A DNA stretch of 64,000 nucleotides from Rotaria magnacalcarata (Eukaryota): contig CBCSLL010000157.1 of NCBI GenBank assembly GCA_965140935.1, positions 33,416 to 97,415 of the forward strand, written 5' to 3'. Positions 1,424 to 42,800 of the stretch are shown here, one piece after another (positions within the stretch are counted from its first letter, which is position 1; every line of letters begins with the position of its first letter). The position numbers were made by a program, and so were the translations under genes. The notes under the pieces were generated by a model that saw nothing but the letters and a program-made list of their open reading frames with translations, was not told the DNA's origin and searched no databases.

Positions 1424-4400
1424 CTATGCCGACAATATCTGAACACTCTTGCACTGGTAAAACTTTACTAGTAGCCATAGTCTGCTGTATGAGTACAGAG
1501 TTCATCTCAGATAAATCTCATCGTTGTTGTATGCTATCTCAACTGCTATTCAGACTCTTTAACAGCAAACAAGTCAATAGCATTCAAATATAAACATAAA
1601 TAATCCACTTGAAATAAAACGACATATCGCCGAAGTCACCATCAAATAGATTCTCGGTTATGATAGTGTATAAAAATTAAATAAAAGAATATTCGAGTGT
1701 TATTCGAGTATGGTTTAGGTCAAATAATACGAAAGATACTTGAACACCATCACAGTGAACAACGCAAAATGTTTCTGTGACAACATACAACTTAACTCGA
1801 TTACAGCTGTTATTATACTAAATGCAATGGGGAGTGTTTTTAGTTAGAGTTCACCCAACTGAAGTTGAACCAATTCGTGGATATACGTAGATATAGAGCA
1901 TTGTCTTCGCTCACATCTACATTCAGAACATTAGTAGAATCTTGTGAAATGCTTCTTTGGTCTATTTTTACGAATAAATTGATAAAAATCGTTTAGATTC
2001 TTGCTAATGTTTGGTTAAGTCTTTTCTGGCGATAGTATAAAATTCAATTAATATCATTTTTTGATAAGAAACTGATACAAAATAGTCACAAACAGATATT
2101 TTGTAGTAGTTTTGTGCTTCCAAAATTTCTATTGTGATTTTTGTCACATGTGAAATTGAAAAGGAAATATCCTTCTAAACAAAGTTTCTTTTCATTGACT
2201 TTCACTGTTTTTATCTAATATGACCAAAACAGTGTTAATTGTACATGAGCGTTATTTTAATTGTGAAACAGACTGTTCGACGTAGTTTATGTTTTCAATT
2301 TGTAAGATGATGATATTTTTGATAATTGTAAGGCGTTCACAAAGATCTTTATTAATAATTTCAAAATTCTCGAGGGTGTTTTTTTAATCAAAAGATAGTT
2401 AAGACAATCGTTAAATCTTTAGAAAGATTATTTAAATATTCACGACTTGATTATTTAAGAGAGAATGTGTCTTTTTTTTATTGAACCACAGTAGTTGGTA
2501 TCTATATCTACAACTATTTATTATTGCTCGATTAGGAAATTATTTAATTTAAATATATTCAGAGAATTTCAAGGGCAGAACAGTAAGTCTCTGTCGATTG
2601 CCAACTTTTTAGAATTAAATTACAAGCATTTATTTTTTCACTTGTAAATTATTTCATTCAATAATTAGTTCTTGATCATGATTTTATGAATATTACTCTA
2701 GATACTAATTGTATATTCGGTAATCTAATGGGAAAATTTTATAAATCAAATTAATTATCAAAATATATTTACACATTTGTCTCGAATAGTCTCTCTCTGT
2801 ATAATCGTTATTTTTTACGCAATATAGCGATGATATTTTTAGTAATTTTCTTTTACGTTAAGTAAGAAAACATATGTTTGAATAAAAAAAATGGTTGCTT
2901 TCGTCTGATACGGTATCGTTTCGCGAAAGACCTTACAAAAATTGCTTTCACTGAAAGTAATAATAAAATATGTCACGTACTAAAGTGCAGATTATTTTTG
3001 GTTTCAACAACTGATCAACAGTCATTTTTGCAATAGATATGATATGGACGAGACGTCTACATAATAGTTTATGATAAAGTTAAATTGAATTCTTATTATC
3101 AGATATTTTTCATAGTATCACGTTGATAACAAATAATCGAAGTTCTAACCGAAACATAGGCAAGATAAAAGAAACTAAAATGAATGATCTAGATAGTATA
3201 TAAAATAATTTTGCATGCACTTCCCCTATTCTTTATCGCCTTTTTCGTTCCGTCTTACCACATTACAATCATATTCAACGTAAAGAAACTTACGGTATAT
3301 TTGATTGTTTGTGATTCTAGTTCAACCGCATTACATTTATAAATCAGTTGCCAGGTACCTGGCAATTCTATAGCCAGGAAAAAAATACAAGTGTTTTTTT
3401 TCTGCTCTTACCATGTTACATGTTTGGTGATTTTGCTGTTCTTTGACTGTATCAATAATCGTCTGTTACCTCGAATATATGTGTGCAAACTAAATTATTA
3501 ATAACAATATTTAATCGATTACCCTTGTCTCTGTGCTTCCAAGACCATCACAGAGAATAATCATTATTTTAGTAATATACGTATATATTTTTGCTCTAAC
3601 TAAACCAATATCTATATCATGTATTTCTTTTAAAAAACATTTTACTGCAGTTTGTAATTTATCAGCATTTGATTTATGTTTCTAAGTGAAAATATGTGAA
3701 CAATCGATATAACTAGGAACCATGTTGGAATTTTTCAGGGTTGACAAATAGCTTTAATAATCTAGAACAAAATCTCTACCTACATATTGGAATTAATAAA
3801 TTGTGTCGATCAATCATGTTTTGGTGTACAGGGTACATTCCAGGAAAAACATTGACTCTATATAAGCACTTGTAAAGCTATCAAGTAGCTGTCAAATATT
3901 GAATATTAACGGATTCTATTCGATTAAAGTCAGTTAATATCTAGTGAAATGATTATAATGTATTCGTATCAACATTCTTTTACGTAGAGTGTTGAATGCG
4001 AAACTAAGAAGTAAAATTTGATTTGCCGAGTAAAAATTAAAAAGATCATTAGGCCATTGCATTTAGTAGACAAACACTTCAAATCTATCGATACAGATTG
4101 ACAACTATCTCCATTTAGTTCTTAGAAAAATATTTTTGAACGAGACCATAGTAAAACATATTCCTATATCACCTAATTAAATAGATTGATCAATTAAAGA
4201 CAGCGTCATACCATTTCGCTTTCGTTTTATAATACAATTTGCATACTTTATTAAGATATACGTTTGGATAAAATTTGTTTTTTCTCACTACATTAATAGA
4301 GAATATGAAATATTTCGGAAGAAGCTCATCATCTATATAATCTGCATTTGTCCCAACTAAAACAATAATATGTCCGAAAGAAATAGTGAGTAAAGACTTA

Positions 4401-7877: not shown

Positions 7878-8835
7878 ATGATAAATCATGGACCTTTCTC
7901 AAGGTTATTAAGAGCAGTATGGCAAAAGCTAATCCATTTGAATTTGTATCATGAAACACATCACTCGAATACGACAACAATGTCTGATCCAAGAATATTT
8001 CGTATGCAACTCTGGTCGACTAGACTTTTTCTTGTCACCATGTTCGTCATTATTGTAATACTAGTTAGTATTTCGGCCACAAAAAAAACATTTGGCAACT
8101 ATCACAGTTGAACACCCAACAGAACAAATCTATAACTCTCTTTATATGCAATACGAAGACCGAGTGCAGTGTCCGTGTTCTCGTATCGATACACCGTTAG
8201 GAGACTACGTGAATGTGACAATTACATTTCATCAATTATGTTCAAGTTATTTTGTATCTCAATCATGGATTGATCATTCTTATCACGTTAATGTATCATT
8301 CATTTGGCCGATGAATGCTAGAACGATCATTAGTGCACATGCACAGCTATTTAGATCTATGTGTAATTTGAGTCAGTCAATAATAGATGATGCTCTTTTA
8401 GGATTATCGTCGACTTTTCTCATCAATACAGAAATTGTTTCATTATACTTCTTAGCTACTGAAGCTAATACACGTGTTGATCAGCCTCTTATAACAATCG
8501 CAAGTTTTTTATCGCTACAATTAGTCACAATAAGACGTGTAAATAATGACAACCAACTTATATCTGACTTAGGAACTAATTCAATCGCAACGTTGCCAAC
8601 TATCGGCATGGCTGCCTATTATATGTTGATCGTAAGCAGTCCGGTATATTATCGCGCCTCGTCACTCAACGCAGATTGTGCTTGTTCAACACAACAGATG
8701 TGTAGTCTACCTATTGCGATCTATCCAAACGAACTAACTGTAAATGAGTCAATAAGAACTAATGGATTCATTAATCATTTTATTGTTGGATCGAACTCAT
8801 CGGTTCTAGTGCCGGGTTTAATATATTTCAAATAA
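7878..8835 (+). pseudogene. Membrane-anchored protein with a CPCS motif; two ORFs separated by a 1-nt frameshift in an A8 homopolymer (8081-8088)
   Basis: ORF 7878-8111 ends in a TM segment (RLFLVTMFVIIVILVSISATKK). ORF 8092-8835 begins ATITVEHPTEQIYNSLYMQYEDRVQCPCSRI. Removing one A from the A8 run joins them in frame (…SATKKHLATITVEHPT…). Confidence 0.4.
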
Positions 8836-11489
8836 TTAAACATGATAAATACTAAAAGTTTATGTATAGTGTGCAGAAAAAAGCTGCTCGAGATGAAATA
8901 GTATAGTAAGATGTACAGTAATGTTAAATATTTTATGAGTCAAAGTTGATCAAAATAGAGTGACCAATGATGTTAATGATGGATCAGCTTGGTTACCATA
9001 TACATCTATAGTAAGTATGTTATTGAATTCAATAAATATCAAATAAGAAGACTAAATTCGAATTGGATATTAAGAAATTTGATGTCTTCATCGAATTATT
9101 CATATTTTTATAGACTAGTGACAGCACATAAAAGTTTAATTTAATATGGGTTTTTTGAAGCAGAAACTAAACTTTTTTCATTGGTGATTGGTCTACTCGG
9201 AGAATTGGATACTGAAAAATCGACGGAAATGAGTAAAATTTGTAGGTATAGATTTCAAAGGTGATAATATATACAAATACGTAAGCGCACTTTACATTTT
9301 CTGATAACTAGAAAAATCGATGGAAAGAATTATCCATATTTATATTTTCACCATAAGTGTACTTCAAACAACACGTAGCTCGGTCATGTTTTGTCATATT
9401 TTTTAGCACAGTGATGCAATATACTGTACTTTGTCATATTTGCACTGCATACAGATTGATATGTGTAACAAGTCTCTGCAACATGGTCCGTATTTCTAAG
9501 CCAGATACTATATCAGACGACAGTTCATTTCCAAGTCATCAGTGAACTATCAATCGTCCTACCCAGATGAAGATACTAGATGTAAGATCTAAAACGACTC
9601 TGAATTTGATCTACCATGACTTTCTAAAATCAGAAGGACGAACCGTCGTCTCAAAAATCTTACGTTAAGTAGTATTTATAGATTCTTGAAAGCTCTTCTT
9701 ACACTATAATATTTAAGTATACGATTGAATCAAATCTTACGTAATAGCAAAATCTTTCAAGAACCTTATAGTACGAGCTGATGTAAGATTGCTGAGAGTA
9801 TGATTGTTTTCTAAGATGTTATGTCAGATTTCTCTATCTCGGTGCTATACCATTCGAAGTGATTAAAAGTAATAAATGCAAAATAATTAATCAATCTTTT
9901 TTTGTTGTTGAAATTAAAAGCTATTCCTTAAATATAATGAAATTTGAGGGCTTAAGAATGCATAAATAATACACTGAGAAATGTGATTGTATGCAAAACT
10001 AGATTATTTTCAATCGATATCATTCGTTTATTCAGTCTCGTCTTACTTGCTACACGAGAAACCAACAATATATAGAGACTGCTTCTACAAAGTATATAGG
10101 CAAGTTCAAATTGGCGAACGCTTAGTTTTCAATAAGTATCTGTTTCAATAACGATTAATTCGTGTTAAACTTTGACAATAGATTAGATAGAATGACTGAG
10201 AATTTTTCTCGTTAGACATACTTATGAGTTCAGCAAAATGACATCAAAATACTTCAGAAAGTTTCTCGATATACTACGTAGGCAACGTTACAATTAACTG
10301 AAAGTTGAGGCTGTAAAACAAGAGAATCAGAGTATCCACCAATTCAGTTAAATCGATGGCTCGTATCTGATCCTCTCTTACTTTACATTAACATTGTTCA
10401 TTGTCGTCCATATTTCATTTGATACTCGTTCATCTCTTTTAGAAATACTGCTATTTGACAGAGGGGAAAGTGTCGTCCAAGCAGTGCTACCGTAGCTAAG
10501 GAAATAACTCTACGTAAAAGAAATTCGAATATTTTTTAAATATTTTAATTACTATTTGTTAGACTTGATTTAATTGTCATATTGGTTAGTAGTCATATTT
10601 GTCATAATCAAAAAATAGCGAAAGAAAGATGTTGTAAACTAGTTAAACTTTTCTACTCAAGTGTGTAATAATTTCTTCGTTTTTTTCATTGTAAATTCTA
10701 TTCAGATGACAGTTCAGATCAAACAAAATAAAAATATTCCAAAACTATAACATAGAATATAAGTTTTGTATCATTTATATTACTTACAAATTTCGCTTAT
10801 ATCATTTCTGTCTCCTATCTGAAAAAATATCCTCTATAGCGATGTTTCAATTTTTTATCATTGGTTTATATAAGACTATAAGTAGAAACCTGAGTTTTCA
10901 TGTCATAAAAAGAAATTGATACATACTCAAGTTCTATTCAATTAGTATTTGATTTTATCTTTGAAAGGTGGTATGATTCTAATTGAAGAATAGCGGTGTT
11001 GGTCAATTCAAATAGACATCATTTTTATAGAGATCATTATTTTTACAAATTCTTTGTACATCGGATAGCTTTTATTGTTATCAATGTTTGGACCATGATA
11101 ATTTTTCGATAAGAACGGTGCCCTTTGTTATTAAGTGAGATAATAAAACGTAGAGTTTATCTATGACAAGAATTTTATTTATTGCTGAAAGAAAATTTTT
11201 CTCGTATTTCACTTCCTTTTTTTACCATCAACTTTATATGATTCGATAGTATTTGATTTAGACATAAGTAAGGATAATAACCATTATATTCAAATATTTT
11301 TTTTGTCAATTACATAACTTGTTGTAGTGCATAGTTAGCTATAAAAATATTTAAAACAGAAAGGAAAATTATTCGGACAGCTAATATTGAATGATAAATA
11401 AAAAATGATCGCTTGATAATTATTTATATTCTAGTTTTTTCATGTAATTTTAAATCGGTTTTTCGACAAGTTGTTTTATTTATTTTCAG

Positions 11490-31374: not shown

Positions 31375-33717
31375 TTATTGTTCCTCTGTGTAAAGAGTCG
31401 TCCATAAGTATAACCATCGTTTATATTTTCGTGCAATTTCTTGTCCTTTAAGATCAATATCATCATATTGATTTGACAAATTAGATCGAGGTAGTTGTAT
31501 GACTTGATCTAAAATATCCATTCCTTGCTCAATAACTTTAGCAAGAAGTTTGCTTTTCCATTGATAATCGATTTTATCGGGTGCTATCAATGAAAATGAT
31601 TCATCCGGCATTGGTGGATCGGCATTTTTGTTTAATCTAGTTTTTCGGGATGATATTGTTTGAAGAAATTTTGCTTTAGCTCTCCATGTGTTACTAGAAA
31701 TTGATGAACGATATAATGAACTTGTTTCATCAAGAAAACTTGTTTGGCTTGATTTCGATGGTATGGATATCCAATGTTGAATCTTTTTTGTTAACAACTT
31801 TTCTATTTCATCTCGATAAGCTTCAATTAAAGATAATTGACCTTGAAATGAGAGACATTCTCTTAATGAACTATCTCTATGTAAAACATTATCAAACGGT
31901 ACAACACTTCCATATAAATGTTGAAGATGATGTTGTCGTTTTAAATTTTGTTTATCTTTTTCCATGATCAATATTAAATCTTCGCGTAATTTCATTTCTT
32001 GTACGGTTAGTTGTTCGTTTTGATCAAATATCTTTTTTGGCCATGTAAGAACTCCTAATTTCAACAATGCTGGTAGTAGTTGTTCGAATTCATCAGGAAC
32101 TTGTTCACGAATATCATCGAATTTTTTTTGATCACATTCAGATAACGATGCATTTAAATCAAGTAACCATAAATTTAATAAACGATATTTAACTGTTGAT
32201 GAACTTGTTATACTTGCAGAATTATCTATTGATGGTGCACGATGATAAATAGATGGTACTACAGGTAGAACTGATGAACCATATGACCGTGTTGCTAATG
32301 ATGATGATGTAACCGTTGAAACTGATAAAGCTCTGCCAATAGCTGTACGATGCAAGTTAACTTTGCTTATTGTTGGTGAATGAGTACCATCGTTATCTAG
32401 TAGTTCATGTTTAGAATTATTTTCTAAAAGATAAGAATAATGTAGAAAAACCTTAGTGACGATTGTTTAATTTCACTTCTTTGAAATCCAGTCAAACATG
32501 AAATTAAAAATAATTCAGTTCAATCGTGTATTTCAGAAATACAATAGAAATTTGATTAGTACGAAGAAAAAATGCGTGTTTATTTTTTGTAAAGTGATGA
32601 AACACACTCCGTCTGATTGAAGGGTTCTGTTTTTCCAAATGAAGATCTCAATTTCATTAGAAATATTCTTAGTAAATAAACTAATAGCATCAGTTCACAC
32701 AGTGAGAGGAAGATAGGTCACAATAACAACTGAAATAATTTATTATTTATCTGTTCAGTAACTGAGCTCATAATTACTACAATGTATTTAGCAGCTGGAC
32801 AATCGAGTTTTGTTTTTAAAACATCTTTTTTAGGGTTTTATAATATCTTTTTCCAAGAAAAGTTCACGATTTGAAAAACAATTTTTCGCCCATGGATCGC
32901 TAAAATCTTGTTATCGTTTATCCAAGTTGATTGACTTCAATTTCTCATTTATTAGTCATTCATTCAGAAATATTGAACTTGTTTTTCTGTTTCTTGGAAT
33001 AAATCTCTAGTTTTTATCTCGAACTATTCTTTAATTTCATAACATCAATAGATAAACATAATTAATCTTAAACAAAAATCAATCACTATCATTCATTATT
33101 TGAAAGTTGTTTTAAAGAAAAACTATCAAATTTTTAATTGGCATTGCTAAATAGTTGTGATTGATTGATATTCTGATGAAGACAAACAAATAGAAAAGCT
33201 AATATTTCCTTAAAGCAAGCAAATTTCTATCTTGAATAGAAAAAAGTGTATCGCATATCAGTAATCACTTTTACATACGACCTTCTCTAAAAGAATATAA
33301 TTATAACCTGATTGTGGTGAATTAACGGGAGCTAAATTCAATGCATGAACATATTGGTTAATATCTGATAATGAATTGGTTTCATTCGTAGTTAGTTGCG
33401 AAGTTTTTTCATCCTTATCTTCAATACTATTTGCAAATTTCACGCGTTTATTGGGTTCAGGTTTAACTGAAAGCCATTTTTTAATAATATCATTCGAATC
33501 TGGTACAAGAAGATCTTCCTGACTTAAACTTTTAAGTAGTTCAGATTGATTGTTATTTACAAGTTTTTTATTTGATTGTTGTTTTAATTTTGGTAATACC
33601 GTTGCTTTTGAAAGTCGAATAGATTCATCACTAGATTATTAATAGAAGAAACTTTGAATATTTCTATTAGTATGAAGATTTTTACCGTGCTGTATTTGTT
33701 TTCATTTGTGTCTTCAT
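31375..33717 (-). CDS. Uncharacterised serine-rich protein, at least 3 coding exons (33686-33717, ~33282-33630, 31375-~32451), stop at 31375
   Basis: Exon 1 MKTQMKTNTAR ends at donor GTAAAA and a 55-nt intron ends in aataatctag. Exon 2 …DESIRLSKATVLPKLKQQSNKK…NSPQSGYNYILLEK ends at donor GTCGTATGT. Last exon …VFLHYSYLLENNSKHELLDNDGTHSPTISKVNLHRTAIGRALSV…RWLYLWTTLYTEEQ*. No recognisable domain. Confidence 0.4.
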
Positions 33718-33831: not shown

Positions 33832-36800
33832 GACTCATCTCCAACGGGTGGAGGCGGTTTAGGTCAACGAACAAATGACTTCGATGGTTTAACATCGACT
33901 CCCACGACAAATCGTGAAAATCTTGTTAATAACAATCATGTTATGAAAAATATAATTGAAACAAAAAAACTTCAACGTGCTATTCAAATACTTAAAATTG
34001 AATTAAATCAACGAGACCTTTTAGTACAAAATCAAAAAATTCACTATGAAGAAAAATGCGAAGATTTAAAAGAAAAATTAGCTGATATGACATATCAAAG
34101 ACAATTGTTACAAACAAAAATTGATTCACAACTTCAAGTAGAATAAAAAATAATAATTAGTGCTCTTGGCTTTGTTACAATAAGTCTCTGTGACTTTTCT
34201 TTAGATTGATCGCAACCTAGCATTGCGTTCACAAGATGAAGTTCGTCAACAATTATCACAAATTATGGAACGACAACATCAGTTAGAAGATGTTAATAAA
34301 CGTTTAATATCAAAATCTAATGAAGTTCGACATAATTTACATAATAAAATTTTACCTACAGATGAAGAATATAGAATTCTAAAATCGACTAATATGAATT
34401 CAGAAAAAATGGCACTGAACGATTTTATTATGGTTTGTCGTTTTTGTTTAATTAAAACTAAATTTTTAAACAATCAATTTTTATTTCAGATAAAATTTTA
34501 TGAAACAGTACGACCATTAGAAATTGAAATTGAAAATTTAAGAAGAACACAAAATATCTTAGATAGTCAATTAGCAGCAACTGGACAAGATCTTATTCAA
34601 GCACAAAAAGTAAATAAATTAACTTTTATTACAAAATAATATCTTTCTAAATACAAAAACAATGACTGTAGAAAAGATTTATAAAGATATACTATGTATA
34701 TCATATTAAATGAGTCATTACTATGTTTTTAATTCTGATAGTGTTGCGTAGAAAATGTCATTCTCTACCAAAATATTTGTTTATCAATATTTTTTATTGT
34801 GATGTTAATTTTGAAAGATAAACATCATCAATTCAAAAATAGTGCCACACACATGCTTGTTTTCTCTGTAGATAAATAAAAAACCAGGAATTTCTCTCAA
34901 CATTCATCCATCCTACTTGCAGTAGATTTATATATCATATAACGATCATATATTGTTCGGTAACAAACGGAGGAATTTCATACGTTGTAAAGTCTTTAAC
35001 ATGATCATAAAAAATGAAACTATCTAAAAAAAAGAAAACAATTTTCAAGAAAGTAAGAAGAAAAAGAAAAAAAATATCGCATATTATATATATCAAACAA
35101 AATAGTAAGTTCCATCGAACGCTAACTATCAGAGAAAAAGAGGATGAATTTTAACATATGAAAATAATGATAGAGATGAAGACAAAACACATCTAATCTC
35201 ATCTTGAAAAAGTGTAAATTAGAACAAAATGAGTGGTAAACGCAAGGAGGAAAGTGCAGGTCTAGAACTCCCAGCACTTCGACACCTGCAGCATCCGCAG
35301 CACCTTTTCTATAGTGAGATTTACTTCGGTCGTATGGAAATGAATCGGGAAAACTACCTTCATTTTCAATAGTAGAGGTGAATTTTTTCTTGAATTATTT
35401 ACAGAATCTGAATGAGAATTATTTCAGAATAAAAAAGCCAACAGAAAAAAAAACATCCTTCGAAAGTAACCGTATATCAAATTGCAGAATGATATACCAT
35501 AACGTTTGATCCTTTTTTATTAGTGTGAGAACTAACACTGAGCTCTGATTATTTTTCAGAAGTTTATTTTTCATTTTATCACCATTGCATTTGTACCGCT
35601 TCTCCTTTCTCTCAGGTATAAAAAAAATATTGGACGAAATGCCATACTCTTTGGTAAAAAAAGCCTGCAAGTAATTTTATTAGCTTGAAAATCATCATTG
35701 AATTCTGATTATTTTCCAATTTCATTGTGTAGTTCATGAAAAATCAATTTTAAACACCTGGAGTCTCCCTCAAGGATCGAAAAACTTTTTCTGTTCTGGT
35801 TTTAATATAGATAGTTATATTTTCATAAAGCTAAGCTTTCTGATTACAATTATTGTCTCAGTTTTGAATTTCATCGAATAATAAGAAAGATATGAAGCAC
35901 TATCTGGGAGCCTTAAAAAACAGTTACTAACCTAAAGTTCCATGAATATTCGATTTATACTGTTTGAAAATAGGTCCGTTCGATGCACAATTTTTTTTTC
36001 CTATCAGAATATATAAGAACAACTTAGATATTCAATCTTTTTCCTCTCGATAAATTCCAAATACAACCCCGATCGGGTCATACAGCTGCAAATACTACTT
36101 TTATCAGTCTTATTAAGTGTAGTTTTTCGAGGTGTACCAGTAAGATTTTCTTGCCGGATACGTAATTAAATGTGCTCTTTCTAATGAAAGAGTTTTCAAC
36201 TTAAAACTCGATGTAATGTAAAGTGTTTTTGCTCCAATACTAGTGTTGGAATCGAATTTCTGTCATTACTTGACTGATACTTGATAGTTTCAAACAGAAT
36301 AATTCCTATGTGACTGAATATAAATATTATATTTTTTTAAGCACAAAATTTGAGTGGATCTAATTATTTCTATAGCTTTTGTTTTCGATCAGATTTTTAC
36401 GTCTGGTCCCTTTCAGGATCATATGAAAGCAAAATATTTTATTCAAAACAACTATTTGATTAATTATTAATTGATCTACTTTATCTCAAACATCACTCTC
36501 AAAGTTTGGAAACTTTTAACATTGTCCACATAGCTTTTGGAGTAAGTTTGTTTTTCGTTATACATGACGGGGACCAGGAGTGAAAATCTGACCGAAAACA
36601 AAAGTTGTAGAAATAATTAAATCGAATTAGATTTTGTGCTTAAAACAAATATAATATTTTAATTCAGTCAAATGGGAATTAATCTGTTTGAAACTATCGA
36701 ATATCGGTCACAAATGACAGAAATTCGGTTTCAAGCGTAGCATTGGAGCGAAACGCTTCACATTACAACGAGTTTTAATTTGAACATAGTTTAATTAAAA

Positions 36801-39800
36801 AGAGCACATTCAATTACGTATTCGGCAAGAAAATCTTTCTGGGAAACCTCGAAAAGTTACATTTCGGAAAATTGAGAATAACATTATTTCTAACTGCATG
36901 ACCCGATCGGGACGGTATTTAGCATTTATCGATAAAACAAAATTGGAATATCTAAGTCGTTCTCATATACTCCGATAGACAAAAACATTCTGTATCGAAG
37001 GAGCCTATTTTCAAACAGTAATAAATCGAATATTCATGAACCTTTGGGCCAAAGTTGTTGTTAAGTCTTCCCGAGAGTGCTTCAGGTCTTTCTTACCGTT
37101 AGTATTCAATGAATTTTAAAATCTAAGATGATATTTGTGATCAGGGAACTTAACTATATCGGAATATAGCTACTTGCACTAATCTCTGAACAAAAAAGGT
37201 TTTTCGATCCTTGACGGGTACTCCAGATGTTAAAAATTGAGTTTTCATAAAATACACAATAAATTCGTGGAAAATAATCAGAATTCAATGATGATTCTCA
37301 AGCTAATAAAATTAGATGCAGGTTTTCAGTGAGTTCAGGTTCCTAATTTGGCACATCTCTGTTTTTATTGTGGAATTAGTGTATTCACCAAGATCGAGGG
37401 AAAACAATGAGTTTAACAGAGAATTATGTCATCGTGTTGTATACTTCTCCTTTATTTTACTGTTCCTTTTCCACTACTACTAACATCTTTACCATGTTTC
37501 AGTATCTCTAGCACCTGCTCAGCACCTGCCCAGCACCTTCGGAAACTTTATAGTAAAAATTTGGTGCTTGGAGGCGGCACTTTCCCCCTTGGGTAAACGT
37601 TAAATATTCTACTTCGGCATATAAAAAAAACTTTTACCTTTCCTATTCCAACTGATCTTATTACTTTTTTTCTAGGTTAATAAAAGTCTTCAAGTTCCGA
37701 CAAGCAGTAAAATAGTGTTTTTGACTGTATCATGAAACCAAATCTTTTCATCGCTGAAATTGAATCTAGGATGATTGGATATACAAATTAAATTCTATAG
37801 AAACACTATCCTTGGCAATTTATATCCTTGAAGTATTTTACTTACTTTCAACTGATCTATAGAAATGATTCGAATCAGCCTTAACAGATGTTTTTCTTTG
37901 TTGTACTCGAGGTTTTCATCGGTCCAATTGAATAAAAAACCTAATCTAACTGACGTAGCTTCAAAGCAAAAACTATTTTTTTAAAAGATAAAGTTCCCAT
38001 TTTTCTAAAAACTTTAAAACCATTTGATTATATCCAATAAAAAGAGAAACTAAGAGAGAAGATTTTATTATAAAAAAGCCCATTATTTATTTCACTCATC
38101 AAGCTTTGATTTTCGAACTGATACAAAAACATTTTCTGTTTCTATTACTACTGACTAGAAACAGATTAGCAATAATTTCTCACAAGACGCACGACTAACT
38201 TATAATTTAATTCTAGAAACTGTTCTGAATATGTCAACGATATTCATATAATAATCACACAATGTTAAGATTAAAAATATTTAGTAGAGATTTCTATAAT
38301 AAGTGTCTTTTTCAACTTGATCATGAATCGAAAGATGACGTTAACTGTACGTTGTCTTACTCACAGATAAAACTAGTATGAAATATTCATTGTTATGCAG
38401 ATGATATGTTTGAAAAATCTTTTCAGCATGTTTATTAAATATGAAGTTGTATTTTGCTGTAAGAATAACCGAATTTGTTTTACTGTCTACGATGTGCTAA
38501 AGCATCTGCACAGCATGATTGCATCAATATGATTCTTCTTTTTATAATATCTCAAGAGTTTGAATCGTTTGTTGATTTTGTCATCTAAGGTGAGCAGTCA
38601 AATTATTAGTTGAGATAAGAGAACATGTTCACTGAAAAGAAATGACTCTGTCGACTGTTTTGTAAATAAAACATATCGATTAGTGTATCTATCATAAAGT
38701 TAACTTTACTGAGTCGTTTATTATTTATGAAATTATTAGTTTTACATGTTGGATAAATAATGAATTTACTATTAAAAGGTCTTAGATGAAGAGCGTCGTA
38801 CAAATCATGTTGTTCATATGCAATTACAAAAGACAGCATCGGAACTAAATGAATATAAAAATTTATCAGAACAATTGGACTTTAAAAAACAAAATTATGA
38901 TCGAATTAAAACGTAAATGAATTATTAAAAATTTATTGAAAACTTGTTTTCTTTGTTTATAGAGAACGAGATCAATATGAACGTCGTGTTGTTGAACTTG
39001 ATCGACAAATAACACAAGATGAATTACAAATACAAACACAAATAAAAGAAAAAGAAAATTTACTTCTTCAAGTATGCTTCTTTTGTAATATTTATGTTCT
39101 GTTTAAAGAAATTCTATATTTCTAACCTAGTTAGCTGAATTACGTCAAGAAGTTACAGTACTTCGACAAGATAAAGAATATTTAACACGACAATATAATG
39201 ATATACAACAAAAATATTACTCAGCTGAAGAAAAAATTTCTACACTCGAAGCATCACTAGATGAAACCAAACGAGCCAAAGAAATTCTTTATGAAAAACA
39301 TATTTCAACCAGGTATTTATATATATGTATATATATATATATATATGCTACAGGGGAGATTGAAATGCAGGGCTATTTAAAATAGGCCTTCGAGGAAATT
39401 GAAATTTCAATCTCACCTATGGCAAATTAAAATCTTTTTTTTTTCAGTGTAATTTATAAGAAAAATTGAATATTTTAGTTTCCCCTAGGGTAAATTAATA
39501 GTTTAGTTTCTCTTATGGGGTAGTTTTAAATAGCCCTAGTAGAAATAAATATATCATTTTTTCTATTCGCAAATTCTATATTACTATGAAAATGATTAAA
39601 TATTTCAAAATAACCTTATGTTTTCAAGCAAATAATCTTACAACAAAACAAAACAAACAATAGAAACGACCTACCTTACTGAAACTAACACACTTATATC
39701 TAGAAAGAAAATATCACATATTTGAGCACACGCATTTAAATCCAGTGGCAGAAGTATGCTACTGTAATGGCACATGTGCTACAAAGTCATGCCCATGCAA

Positions 39801-42800
39801 GACGAAAAATATTAAAAGTTGCACATAATGTCACTCAGAAAACAATATGAGTGTGCTCAAGTATGTGATATTTTCTTTCTAGATATAAGTGTGTTAGTTT
39901 CAGTAAGGTAGGTCGTTTCTATTGTTTGTTTTGTTTTGTTGTAAGATTATTTGCTTGAAAACATAAGGTTATTTTGAAATATTTAATCATTTTCATAGTA
40001 ATATAGAATTTGCGAATAGAAAAAATGATATATTTATTTCTACTAGGGCTATTTAAAACTACCCTATAAGAGAAACTAAACTATTAATTTACCCTAGGGG
40101 AAACTAAAATATTCAATTTTTCTTATAAATTACACTGAAAAAAAAAGATTTTAATTTGCCATAGGTGAGATTGAAATTTCAATTTCCTCGAAGGCCTATT
40201 TTAAATAGCCCTGCATTTCAATCTCCCCTGTAACATATATAAGGAAATCTTGGCGGTAATATAATAAGAATCAAGTTACGATTGTTTTTTACTAATGTGA
40301 GTAGGATCGGTTGAGTCAGAAATCGATTCATGAATGTTCACTCACGCGTATTCGTCGAGAAATATGACACAAGAGAAAGTAGAATTCTTTTTCGTTGTCG
40401 ATATGTTCCCAACAGGCTGTCCAATTAAAAGAATTTCACTTCAGTATAATATTAGATTACTCTCTGACTAGGAATAATATCAATGTTCTCACCACATGCT
40501 TCTTAATATTATTATGGAAATAGAATTAAGAATTAAAACATGGAAAACTGTTGTAAATAATCTATCAGAAATTGTATTTCAATCTATTTATAGAGACGCC
40601 TACAAAACTGAATACGAAAATAAATTGGCTGCTGAATTAGAACAACTTCGGTCAAAAACTACACTTGAAATTGATAAACTACGTGAAAGTATCAAAGAAA
40701 TGTATGATAGAGAAAATCGGTAAGTTATTTTTCTTGTTATTTTTTCTTTTCCAAACACATCTCTTATCAGAACATTTCAACACGCACGTGATGAAGCTAT
40801 AACTGAACGCGATCGACACATTCAACTTGAACGAGATTTACAACGAAAATATGATGAATTATTAAATGAGTAAGAATCAGTTTATTGATAATGAAACTTT
40901 TTTTGAAACGTATATCTATCTAAATAGATATCGTCAATATCAAAGTACAAACGAAGTTCGTTTAGGTGAATTACAATCAGAATTAAAATTGAAAACATTT
41001 GAACTCGATCGTCTGCAATTGTTATATGAAGAAAATTTAAAATCATTAAAAACAACACAAGTTGAAATTGAAAAATTACAAAAGAAAAATGATGTTTGTT
41101 TTTTTGTTTTTTATTTTCAAAGTTTCTTAGTTCTTATTTTTTGTATATTGTTTCTTACAGTTAATTCAAAAAGAATATTTTAATCTACAAGTTCAATCTG
41201 ATCGTCGCCTTATGGAAGTCGATACTGAATTAAACGAAAAAAGAACCAAATTACAAGTATATGAGAAGGTTGAACAAGAATTAGATGAAGTTGTTATGCA
41301 AGCTGCTCAAGGTAACGAACATATATTTTTTAATGACCTTGACCATTCAATTTTGTTTGAGAAATTTCTCAAAATTTAAGATTATTATCGAATAGATTGA
41401 TAGTAGAAAAATCGTCTTATTCTATCTATTTCCAGAAACGTGTTTCATTCTACTTTTAATCAATCTTGCAAAGATACAAAAGGAAGAGAATTCGTCAGTT
41501 AAAACGAGACATTATTGGTAGATGGTAATTGATTATAAGTCAACAGTAACTGATAGAGATTGAGGCGACGGACAGACAAAGTACTGCTAAGATATCTACT
41601 AATGGTTATGGGGATAGAGTGGCGTTATCAAGGATGTTGTTGAAGAGTTATCTGTAACAGATTTGTCATTTTGGGTAGAAGGAGAGAAAGGAATAGATTT
41701 AAATTTCTACTCCAGATATTTCAATACTTTTTTCTCTGCCGACAGGAAGATCTTCATGAATCATATTTATCTAAACTTTAGTACTTATGGTTAGAACATA
41801 TCTACGTAGTGACACCAGGAAAATTAGTGATAACACAAAACATGATCATGATTCATGCTGACTTTTATTCATTATACGATCTAGGTTTTTAGCAAAGATT
41901 TTTTACCATGAATATATTTAAAACAAGAACCTCTCTCCGTTTAAGTCAAGTCAATTTTAATTCGATAATTCCTAAGCTAACCAAATTATCAAATAATTCT
42001 CTAACTTTTTTCATAGACGAGTCTAATGATTTTACAATGCAAAATATATCTGAAAGTTTACTCAAATCTTTCATAATGATTTGTCAGGTGTAAAAGATGA
42101 TTTCGACCTTCTTATTTTATTGACAGACAACAACAACTTTTCGTTCAGATTAAGTGCTCTGAAGACTCTTTCGTGCGATACATATTTTAAGGTATATACA
42201 GCTGATTTTTTTTTGACAGTATCTAAAGTAATTCAATATACATTTGTCATAGTAAAATTAGTATAGTAACATTACAGTGTCTGGAAACATATTAACTCTT
42301 GTTTAGTCAAAGCATATCGCCGACGACAAACATTGCTCATCTGTGTTTAATCGATAGATTCGCGTATAATATTATCAATTGATGATTTGATGCTCCAACT
42401 TACATTTTAATTTATTAACAAGATGAATTTTGGGCTCTTTTCTCAAATATTATGTATTCGATAGGATTCTATAGAAAATTTCTATTGTTAATACTAGGAG
42501 TATCATGTCAATGTTGAAACAATTCAATATGATATGCTTAACTAGAAAATATATAGTCAATAATGTATGAAATCAAATATTGACAAATATTATTCGTTGA
42601 CTTATTAAAAAATAAAATCAGTCGACATTAAACTATTTTGTATCTTATGAAACTTTTATTATTATTTTAAGCACTTAATTTTGTGCCACTCACAAACATT
42701 TTCATGCATTTGTTCTAACCATAAATGTTATATTTCATACAAAAACAAAATACAATTCTGAAACATTGTAATGTTAACATTACAACGATATCGTTCAAAT

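Follow-up and report, generated by a model that had tools for sequence, protein, structure and literature searches.

An 880-bp foldback in a PIBF1 intron of Rotaria magnacalcarata is probably the relic of a long-TIR DNA transposon

Introduction

The closest described systems are transposons of the long-TIR or foldback type. Goblin, a long-TIR MITE of Aedes, derives from the Tc1/mariner element Ozma and arose via a microhomology deletion plus a second, inverted copy of its 3′ subterminal sequence; Tc7 of C. elegans and Galileo of Drosophila also belong to this type (PMC3814204). Ginger2 elements, described by Bao, Kapitonov and Jurka in 2010, have TGTNR termini, generate 4-bp duplications at the preferred target RTATAY and carry TIRs of 45–297 bp (PMC2836005). 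Among bdelloids, the insertion of a foldback-like DNA transposon is reported as the one large indel in gene-rich contigs (PMC2861651).

Here we analyze an 880-bp foldback noticed in the sequence at positions 39351–40230 of a 64,000-nt stretch of R. magnacalcarata DNA, referred to below as the window. The source, a bdelloid rotifer, is borne out by a neighboring 326-aa ORF with 100% identity to P0001, a protein of R. magnacalcarata at NCBI. Like Goblin, Tc7 and Galileo, it is non-coding and shorter than 1 kb, its arms of hundreds of base pairs appear to come from terminal and subterminal sequence of a parent element, its short unique center holds a piece of a putative parent ORF beside a stop codon, and microhomology probably took part in a later deletion. 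Unlike those elements, it is represented here by one copy, too few to fix the termini and the target duplication. With Drosophila FB elements it shares long inverted arms, a short or absent center and the potential for arm-mediated inversion and deletion, as well as the bdelloid precedent; unlike in FB, the arms are mostly unique sequence, in which a 14-nt motif recurs three to four times close to the tip, and there is no 9-bp duplication. Human Y-chromosome palindromes are large, and gene conversion makes their two arms evolve together. The present locus resembles them in that arm-to-arm identity lies well above the sister-species divergence of the same sequence. It differs in scale (hundreds of base pairs versus tens of kb to Mb), in its probable transposon origin and in having no genes in its arms.

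Structure and setting of the foldback

The foldback consists of two arms around a loop and lies close to the start of an intron:

39314–39350, forward strand: 5′ end of the PIBF1 intron, with the donor GT at 39314–39315, a (TA)n tract at about 39319–39346 and TGCTA adjoining the element
39346–39350, forward strand: TGCTA, part of the outer extension of the inverted repeat; its mirror, TAACA, is at 40231–40235
39351–39735, forward strand: left arm, 385 nt, with 99.2% identity to the right arm once that is reverse-complemented; complementarity already begins at 39340
39353–39366 and 39392–39405, forward strand, and 39404–39417, reverse strand: subterminal 14-nt motif GGTGAGATTGAAAT, with mirror copies at 40164–40228
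39736–39846, forward strand: central loop, 111 nt of unique sequence
39847–40230, forward strand: right arm, 384 nt; complementarity continues to 40241

Over 385 nt, the arms differ by three mismatches (39517/40065, 39721/39861 and 39732/39850) and a single indel in a T run at 39435, an inverted repeat far above chance expectation. An earlier interpretation made from the letters of the window alone (the sequence-only reading) had described near-perfect arms of ~400 bp. Their near-identity in an 880-bp foldback is confirmed; their length is 385 nt, or 390–396 nt when an outer extension is counted. The repeat runs past the apparent ends CAGGGG and CCCCTG, where TATATATGCTA (39340–39350) is complementary to TAACATATATA (40231–40241) over 11 nt with one mismatch. 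The predicted RNA fold of 39340–40241 has an energy of −655 kcal/mol, compared with −163 ± 8 in shuffled sequences (z = −64). Eight of the 25 window matches to the 14-nt motif fall within the element, the whole-window expectation being 13 ± 3.5, and the subterminal copies are candidate transposase-binding sites. The ORF list contains no frame of more than 39 codons that overlaps the element, and an Rfam search of 38500–41500 returned just one sub-threshold snoRNA-like match, outside the element. Short-read assemblies all break within the element.

The last base of the upstream exon, exon A (LAELRQ...HISTR), is 39313, and the element begins 37 bp downstream of the splice donor, after the (TA)n tract. 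Metagenome relatives of the downstream exons carry the JGI name progesterone-induced-blocking factor 1. The placement proposed in the sequence-only reading, in a PIBF1 intron adjoining a (TA)n microsatellite and a splice donor, is upheld by the donor GT and the position of the tract. A search with the PIBF1 C-terminal region for a contig across the right junction found only short contigs that begin after the element. A neighboring intron of PIBF1 contains a clean transposon insertion (35243–37591) with a perfect 8-bp duplication, GGTAAACG, and the corresponding site in R. socialis is empty, which indicates that such elements have been mobile in this lineage. The terminus of the foldback resembles that of this neighboring hAT-like element (AAATGCAGGGCTA versus AAGTGCAGGTCTA), a weak lead to which we attach no weight.

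Termini and target site

The ends of the element can be read in two ways. TGCTA and TAACA may be flanking sequence, with a TA duplication at 39349–39350 and 40231–40232. Alternatively, TG...CA may be the true terminus, with a TATA duplication at 39342–39345 and 40236–40239. The target-site duplication is ambiguous, since a (TA)n tract reads alike on both strands.

The first way of reading the ends corresponds to a recently inserted foldback MITE of the Tc1/mariner type, comparable to C. elegans Tc7 and bounded as TA-CAGGGG...CCCCTG-TA. TA is indeed present on both sides, the CAG start is as in Tc1-like elements, and the size and arm length are like those of long-TIR MITEs such as Tc7 (PMC3814204). 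Outgroup introns weakly resemble ...TGCTA/ACATATATAAGG in a low-complexity alignment, and TGC/ACA could be native flank. We nevertheless consider this origin unlikely. Only one copy is available, a TA inside a (TA)n tract is nearly uninformative, and the inverted repeat continues for 9 nt past the TA, or 11 nt past the ends proposed here. The one related ORF found (described below) ends in a cysteine cluster and, over the C-terminal ~200 codons present on its contig, shows no Tc1/mariner domain or similarity to a transposase, and an orthologous remnant in R. socialis speaks against a recent insertion. The sequence-only reading had called the flanking TA dinucleotides diagnostic of Tc1/mariner integration; that diagnosis is not supported, and the same bases fit TG...CA with TATA, the Ginger2 pattern, equally well.

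A non-autonomous element of the integrase-type Ginger2/TDD kind, with ends TG(C/T)TA...TAACA, an ATATAT target and a 4-bp TATA duplication, is a tentative option that we regard as doubtful. Set against the Ginger2 termini TGTNR...YNACA, TGTTA on the right and TGCTA on the left show one mismatch, provided that the boundary is placed 5 nt outside CAGGGG. The arrangement A-TATA-TG...CA-TATA-T fits a 4-bp duplication in RTATAY, although any (TA)n tract would trivially do so, and the pre-insertion site would be pure (TA)n, as outgroup introns have here. On this reading, TG...CA ends, a 4-bp duplication in an alternating AT target and long TIRs would be shared with Ginger2/TDD, a group that also has short non-autonomous derivatives, for example Ginger2-1N1_NV. 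Unlike in Ginger2/TDD, the left end is TGC rather than TGT, the arms (390 nt) exceed the listed maximum of 297 bp, the searches turned up no integrase (H2C2 or DDE), and Pfam gives no match for the related ORF fragment.

Two further assignments were rejected. For hAT, the 8-bp flanks ATATGCTA (left) and TAACATAT (right) agree at only 1/8 positions as direct repeats; CAGGG at 39351–39355 conforms to the hAT terminus YARNG, which is a weak criterion. For a Drosophila-type FB element, each arm has three to four dispersed copies of the 14-nt motif and no tandem subrepeat arrays, and over 9 nt the flanks, TATATGCTA and TAACATATA, do not form a direct repeat. The element is MITE-like in having no coding capacity, inverted repeats and an interior 80% identical to the 3′ end of an ORF elsewhere in the genome.

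The loop and its dispersed relative

Two features in and around the loop bear on a parent element:

39664–39828, forward strand: relic ORF, read stop to stop, 54 codons plus the stop
39737–39920, forward strand: segment homologous to positions 890–1068 of contig L011, comprising the loop and the inner 74 nt of the right arm (80.4% identity over 184 nt, E = 6e-41)

The relic ORF contains the cysteine spacing CxCx3Cx4CxCx7C, with one more cysteine two codons past the stop. A Cys-rich mini-ORF had been noted in the loop before; it exists, and its third gap is x4 rather than the x5 then given. The ORF is related to the protein P0034 (CAF5174241.1; phmmer E = 2.4e-7; 26/42 residues identical in BLASTP), and the homology to this longer ORF reads through the stop (T, stop, CHS versus TKCHP). 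P0034 is encoded on L011, a 1331-bp R. magnacalcarata contig, where the ORF extends ~200 codons upstream. This homology identifies the loop as what remains of the 3′ end of a longer coding sequence. A single match links the loop together with the right arm to the final ~37 codons of the Cys-rich ORF and to its 3′ flank. The match spans just the loop and the inner arm and includes no terminus; in L011 the homology ends at a reverse-transcriptase fragment. Relative to L011, the boundary between left arm and loop is a novel junction.

Database searches placed this ORF in no described family. Pfam gave no match for the loop ORF or for the L011 ORF, of which the C-terminal ~200 codons are on the contig; with the latter, a PDB sequence search returned only noise and a viral-contig search no match. 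Lacking a Pfam or solved-structure match, the L011 ORF has putative status as a transposon gene. A word-indexed protein search with the loop ORF gave no candidate, an exact look-up of a 34-aa ORF of the element in public assemblies gave no record, and a tRNA scan of L011 and the window found none. The cysteine cluster, CxCx3Cx4CxCx6-7Cx2CH, corresponds to no Pfam family, and of 1.84 billion representative proteins only one could be detected as related. It is preceded by a GDLVxLxIxxVDR... segment, which we take, as an impression, to resemble an integrase C-terminal region. The parent may represent an undescribed bdelloid DNA-transposon lineage and, alternatively or additionally, the hairpin may have been kept to supply small RNAs against that lineage; we consider this proposal distinctly improbable.

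Further copies were sought in several collections. Self-BLAST found no second copy within the window, and none with the same termini occurs in ~240 kb of fetched Rotaria DNA. An exact scan with two conserved 24–25-mers gave no match in a metagenome collection, and one with the first of them gave none in prokaryote-genome and viral collections; these three collections hold no Rotaria genome, which makes the scans uninformative. Nor did an autonomous partner emerge from the DNA and collections covered. The sequence-only reading had said that a lack of other copies would favor a local palindromic duplication. Such a lack applies in part: L011 is a partial relative, without the termini. A local palindrome made from native intron sequence was rejected; the arms are absent from three outgroup introns, and the inner part is related to L011.

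Species comparison and age

In R. socialis (L003 and L004), the orthologous left end lies at the same junction, ...TGCTACAGG..., and includes the left-specific TGCTA variant. About 108–110 nt of the left arm are present and are followed directly by the right flank, at TATAAG/GAAATC. The junction coincides with a short repeat in R. magnacalcarata:

39455–39460, forward strand: left copy of the 6-bp microhomology TATAAG; the right copy is at 40238–40243

The 783 bp missing from R. socialis (39461–40243) lie between the two TATAAG copies, and the chance probability of a 6-bp microhomology is ~6e-4. The remnant is 91.7% identical between the two species and the flanking intron 94.2%. The element is absent from the three outgroups, Rotaria sp. 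Silwood1, R. sordida and sp. Silwood2 (L005, L007 and L008). Their introns likewise open with GTATATATATA and then hold 400–860 bp of unrelated sequence at the element's place, with no clean empty site; homology to the window restarts at ~40235–40242, which is the element's end.

Because R. socialis shares the orthologous left end, the insertion predates the split between R. magnacalcarata and R. socialis. A complete insertion cannot consist of a solo end that lacks its inverted counterpart, so R. socialis has probably undergone a deletion. The converse, a 783-bp insertion in R. magnacalcarata with a TATAAG duplication, was rejected: the segment has no inverted ends, and this reading would also need an inverted copy of adjacent native sequence inside it. 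Had the arms evolved independently since the split, four or fewer differences between them would have a probability of 2.5e-6 to 6.5e-10. An insertion this old whose arms are still 99.2% identical points to arm-to-arm gene conversion having kept them alike. The sequence-only reading had offered a recent insertion or gene conversion; the 91.7% identical R. socialis ortholog contradicts the former, and the latter fits.

The flanks and the species comparison also bear on whether the foldback ever transposed as such. The end of a transposon fragment, together with ~11 nt of flank, could have been copied in inverted orientation by fold-back or template-switch break repair, giving a palindrome in situ. 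The flanks beyond the TA are inverted rather than direct, the left 8-nt flank agreeing with the reverse complement of the right one at 7/8 positions, and the left-arm/loop junction is the novel one. Moreover, the R. magnacalcarata/R. socialis lineage lost 400–860 bp of native intron here, as break repair would cause. We find such an origin improbable, however. Six of the 11 flank bases are the self-complementary TATATA, which reduces the real evidence to 4/5 bases; the left end in R. socialis means that the event must predate the species split; and gene conversion would still be required for 99% arm identity.

A functional explanation would have selection preserve the identity of the arms for the sake of an intronic 385-bp dsRNA whose small RNAs would silence the parent element. 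The hairpin is predicted to be extremely stable, the similarity of the arms far exceeds what neutral divergence permits, and RNAi gene families are described as expanded in bdelloids (PMC7943196). We rate such a maintained hairpin-RNA locus as highly implausible, given that R. socialis deleted the hairpin without replacement, that gene conversion by itself accounts for the arm identity and that no Rfam match lies in the element.

Origin and fate of the element

From the way the element is built, from the species that have it whole, as a remnant or not at all, and from the L011 homology, we infer an origin by transposition. It is probably the fossil of a DNA transposon, non-autonomous and with inverted ends of great length (foldback/long-TIR type), which we assign to no particular superfamily. 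Such a fossil would comprise the 3′ end of a longer element twice, in opposite orientations. The left arm could be the parent's own 5′ inverted repeat, brought next to the loop when internal sequence was deleted, or template switching in the course of gap repair could have produced it as an inverted copy. Insertion into the (TA)n tract, where the PIBF1 intron begins, would have taken place in the ancestor that R. magnacalcarata and R. socialis share. Gene conversion between the R. magnacalcarata arms would then have held them ~99% alike, and the whole unit may flip via recombination between them. In R. socialis, the unstable palindrome would have been lost by the 783-bp deletion between the TATAAG microhomologies, which left the solo left end. 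Today the element is most likely immobile. Its transcription would be confined to that of the intron, in which a 385-bp RNA hairpin would form and then be spliced out.

The element is real but ordinary; it leaves the general picture of transposons and of PIBF1 unchanged. It is of use for transposon annotation in Rotaria genomes, with the caution that an insertion of this kind cannot be dated from arm identity. As a small and well-bounded example, it illustrates the behavior of a palindromic, probable transposon relic in the genome of an asexual bdelloid: the arms appear to have been kept ~99% identical in one lineage long past speciation, whereas its sister lineage appears to have removed the palindrome by a microhomology deletion.

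Anatomy and setting of the foldback element

The host gene of the element is PIBF1: JGI labels metagenomic relatives of the following exons progesterone-induced-blocking factor 1. The preceding exon codes for LAELRQ...HISTR, and the element starts 37 nt past the donor GT (39314), directly behind a (TA)n tract, just where the sequence-only reading had placed it. The window has a G+C content of 29.6%, and a 326-codon ORF at 31375-32355 (minus strand) is 100% identical to the NCBI R. magnacalcarata protein P0001. At 38954-39034 (plus strand) in the upstream intron, the C/D-box snoRNA family RF00536 scores 25.5 bits, below its gathering score of 43 (E = 0.87); this match is probably due to chance.

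Parts of the element, from self-alignment
39351-39735, plus strand: left arm, 385 nt, aligned with the right arm
39736-39846, plus strand: loop, 111 nt between the arms
39847-40230, inverted relative to the left arm: right arm, pairing as 40230-39847

Aligned over 385 nt, the arms are 99.2% identical (three mismatched positions and a 1-nt indel within a stretch of T), which confirms the inverted repeat. Its proposed limits, CAGGGG and CCCCTG, are present, but complementarity runs 11 nt further out, with one mismatch between TATATATGCTA and TAACATATATA. As intron RNA, 39340-40241 is predicted to fold into one hairpin (-655 kcal/mol versus -163 +/- 8 for shuffled sequence, z = -64). Each arm has three copies of the 14-nt motif GGTGAGATTGAAAT in its outer 70 nt, and 8 of the motif's 25 matches in the window fall in the element; the copies are candidate subterminal binding sites, a pattern that singles out no family. 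No ORF longer than 39 codons overlaps the element. The cysteines of the mini-ORF described in the loop are there, spaced CxCx3Cx4CxCx7C rather than CxCx3Cx5CxCx7C.

Age of the insertion and identity of the arms

We reached the PIBF1 locus in other assemblies via orthologues of a neighbouring gene and compared contigs from R. magnacalcarata (L001, L002), R. socialis (L003, L004), Rotaria sp. Silwood1 (L005), R. sordida (L007) and Rotaria sp. Silwood2 (L008, L009). R. socialis has the left junction as in the window (...TATATGTGCTACAGGAG...), including the left-specific C of TGCTA, followed by 108 nt with 91.7% identity to 39351-39460 that run straight into the right flank GAAATCTTGGCGG. The insertion therefore predates the split of the two species, contrary to the recent insertion that arm identity had suggested. 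The 783 bp absent from R. socialis correspond to 39461-40243, and TATAAG stands at both edges of this gap in the window (39455-39460 and 40238-40243), a 6-bp match with a chance probability of ~6e-4. Since it lacks an inverted end, what R. socialis retains is a solo end, the product of a deletion, rather than a small complete element.

Neutral divergence between the two species at this locus is 6-8%, so that 22-32 arm differences would be expected had the arms been independent since the split; four were found (P = 2.5e-6 to 6.5e-10). Near-identity therefore provides no date for the insertion; it indicates gene conversion between the arms, which the sequence-only reading had named as its second option.

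In the outgroups (Silwood1, R. sordida and Silwood2), the orthologous intron contains no inverted repeat and nothing similar to the element. Similarity to the window intron picks up again at ~40235-40242; in the element's place lie 400-860 bp of other intron, conserved among the outgroups themselves, which therefore offer no clean empty site. The intron 3' of the element is ~60% conserved in all five Rotaria species, unlike the remaining intron; its window part contains no ORF and has no Rfam match.

Conserved downstream intron
Window 40244-40540
L005 5566-5243 (Silwood1)
L007 5652-5415 (R. sordida)
L008 3831-3527 (Silwood2)

In Silwood2 (L008 3083-3220, L009 3-140), the exon behind the element's intron is opposite in strand to the preceding exon and lies beside an N run; the cause is a scaffolding error or else an inversion that broke within this intron.

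With the left flank as reference, L002 carries the loop and every arm variant the other way round: although this contig is reversed overall, its positions 1-619 match 39623-40241 in the same orientation (99.8%). L001 (1-223) carries the same variants, likewise inverted. Either inter-arm recombination flipped the segment or the assembly is ambiguous here. The short-read contigs, that of the annotated protein P0010 among them, all end within the element or at its edge, and PIBF1 is therefore annotated there as two partial proteins; P0010 starts only at 40496, past the element.

Contig break points in window coordinates
~39563: L001
~39959: L002
40213: L010 (Logan contig, ERR2135451)

A relative of the loop ORF

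The 54-codon loop frame, run as a full HMMER search against 1.84 billion representative proteins, had one meaningful match, the R. magnacalcarata protein P0034 (CAF5174241.1; E = 2.4e-7), with 26 of 42 residues identical in an alignment that passes through the window's stop codon. Its contig, L011 (1331 bp), matches 39737-39920 over 184 nt at 80.4%, a segment comprising the loop and the adjoining 74 nt of the right arm; similarity breaks off at the start of a reverse-transcriptase fragment. The L011 frame extends ~200 codons upstream with one in-frame stop, just upstream of which there is an apparent short intron, and ends ~20 codons into the part that corresponds to the window's arm. Neither Pfam families nor solved structures gave a match to this ORF. 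Since the homology spans the loop and continues into the right arm, the two form a single contiguous piece of a longer unit's 3' end, and the boundary between left arm and loop is a secondary junction. The reverse-transcriptase fragment (L011 1069-1331, Pfam RVT_1) in our judgement resembles an RTE/BovB-type retrotransposon. At the other end of the contig (1-75), a tRNA-like T-arm sequence was not called by ARAGORN.

Origin and affiliation

The element has the anatomy of a non-autonomous derivative, and the L011 ORF is a candidate transposon gene. A parent with long inverted ends may have lost its interior; alternatively, the parent's 3' subterminal region may have been copied inverted during gap repair, a route on record for the MITE Goblin (PMC3814204). 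No further copy of the termini was found in the window or in ~240 kb of other Rotaria DNA. Exact-pattern scans of metagenome, prokaryote and viral collections, uninformative since none holds a Rotaria genome, gave no match.

Any superfamily assignment rests on one copy within a self-complementary (TA)n tract, where three readings fit the bases. The Tc1/mariner-like boundaries first proposed, TA|CAGGGG...CCCCTG|TA, are thus one fit of several, and we consider them unlikely to be the true ones. A Ginger2-like element, TATA|TG(C/T)TACAGG...CCTGTAACA|TATA in ATATAT, is a tentative possibility: it agrees with the termini (TGTNR), 4-bp duplication and target (RTATAY) described for Ginger2 (PMC2836005), and leaves a pure (TA)n tract as the pre-insertion site, as in the outgroups. 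An inverted copy of one end and its flank, made in place, fits too but seems improbable. We regard two further ideas as long shots: an undescribed lineage of bdelloid transposons, of which the Cys-cluster ORF would be the mark, or a hairpin maintained as a source of small RNA. We favour, with reasonable confidence, a non-autonomous DNA transposon of foldback type, old and now dead, whose arms were homogenised by gene conversion and whose R. socialis copy was truncated by a microhomology deletion.

Other insertions and foldbacks at the locus

Another PIBF1 intron holds a 2349-bp insertion (35243-37591) with a perfect 8-bp duplication, GGTAAACG, at 35235-35242 and 37592-37599, and inverted ends CAAGGAGGAAAGTGC / CAAGGGGGAAAGTGC; in R. 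socialis the empty site is intact (GAGTGGTAAACGTTAAAT). It is a non-autonomous element of hAT type that inserted once the two species had separated. The 880-bp element, in contrast, lacks such a direct duplication: its 8-nt flanks are not direct repeats, so the hAT pattern fails and this identity was rejected.

Inside the 2349-bp insertion lies a second, larger foldback (35660-37326, 1667 bp), whose arms of ~810 nt share only 76.6% identity and enclose a centre of ~45 nt. L001 and L002 contain it, R. socialis does not, and its sequence has no similarity to the 880-bp element. A 247-bp segment (37723-37969) is also absent from R. socialis; no clear inverted ends or duplication were recognised in it. 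The outgroups contain several more long imperfect inverted repeats in and around PIBF1.

Outgroup inverted repeats
L007 (R. sordida): 927-2190, 3601-3969, 8414-9487
L005 (Silwood1): 8500-9050
L008 (Silwood2): 8008-9699

Foldback-like structures seem to be common in Rotaria introns.
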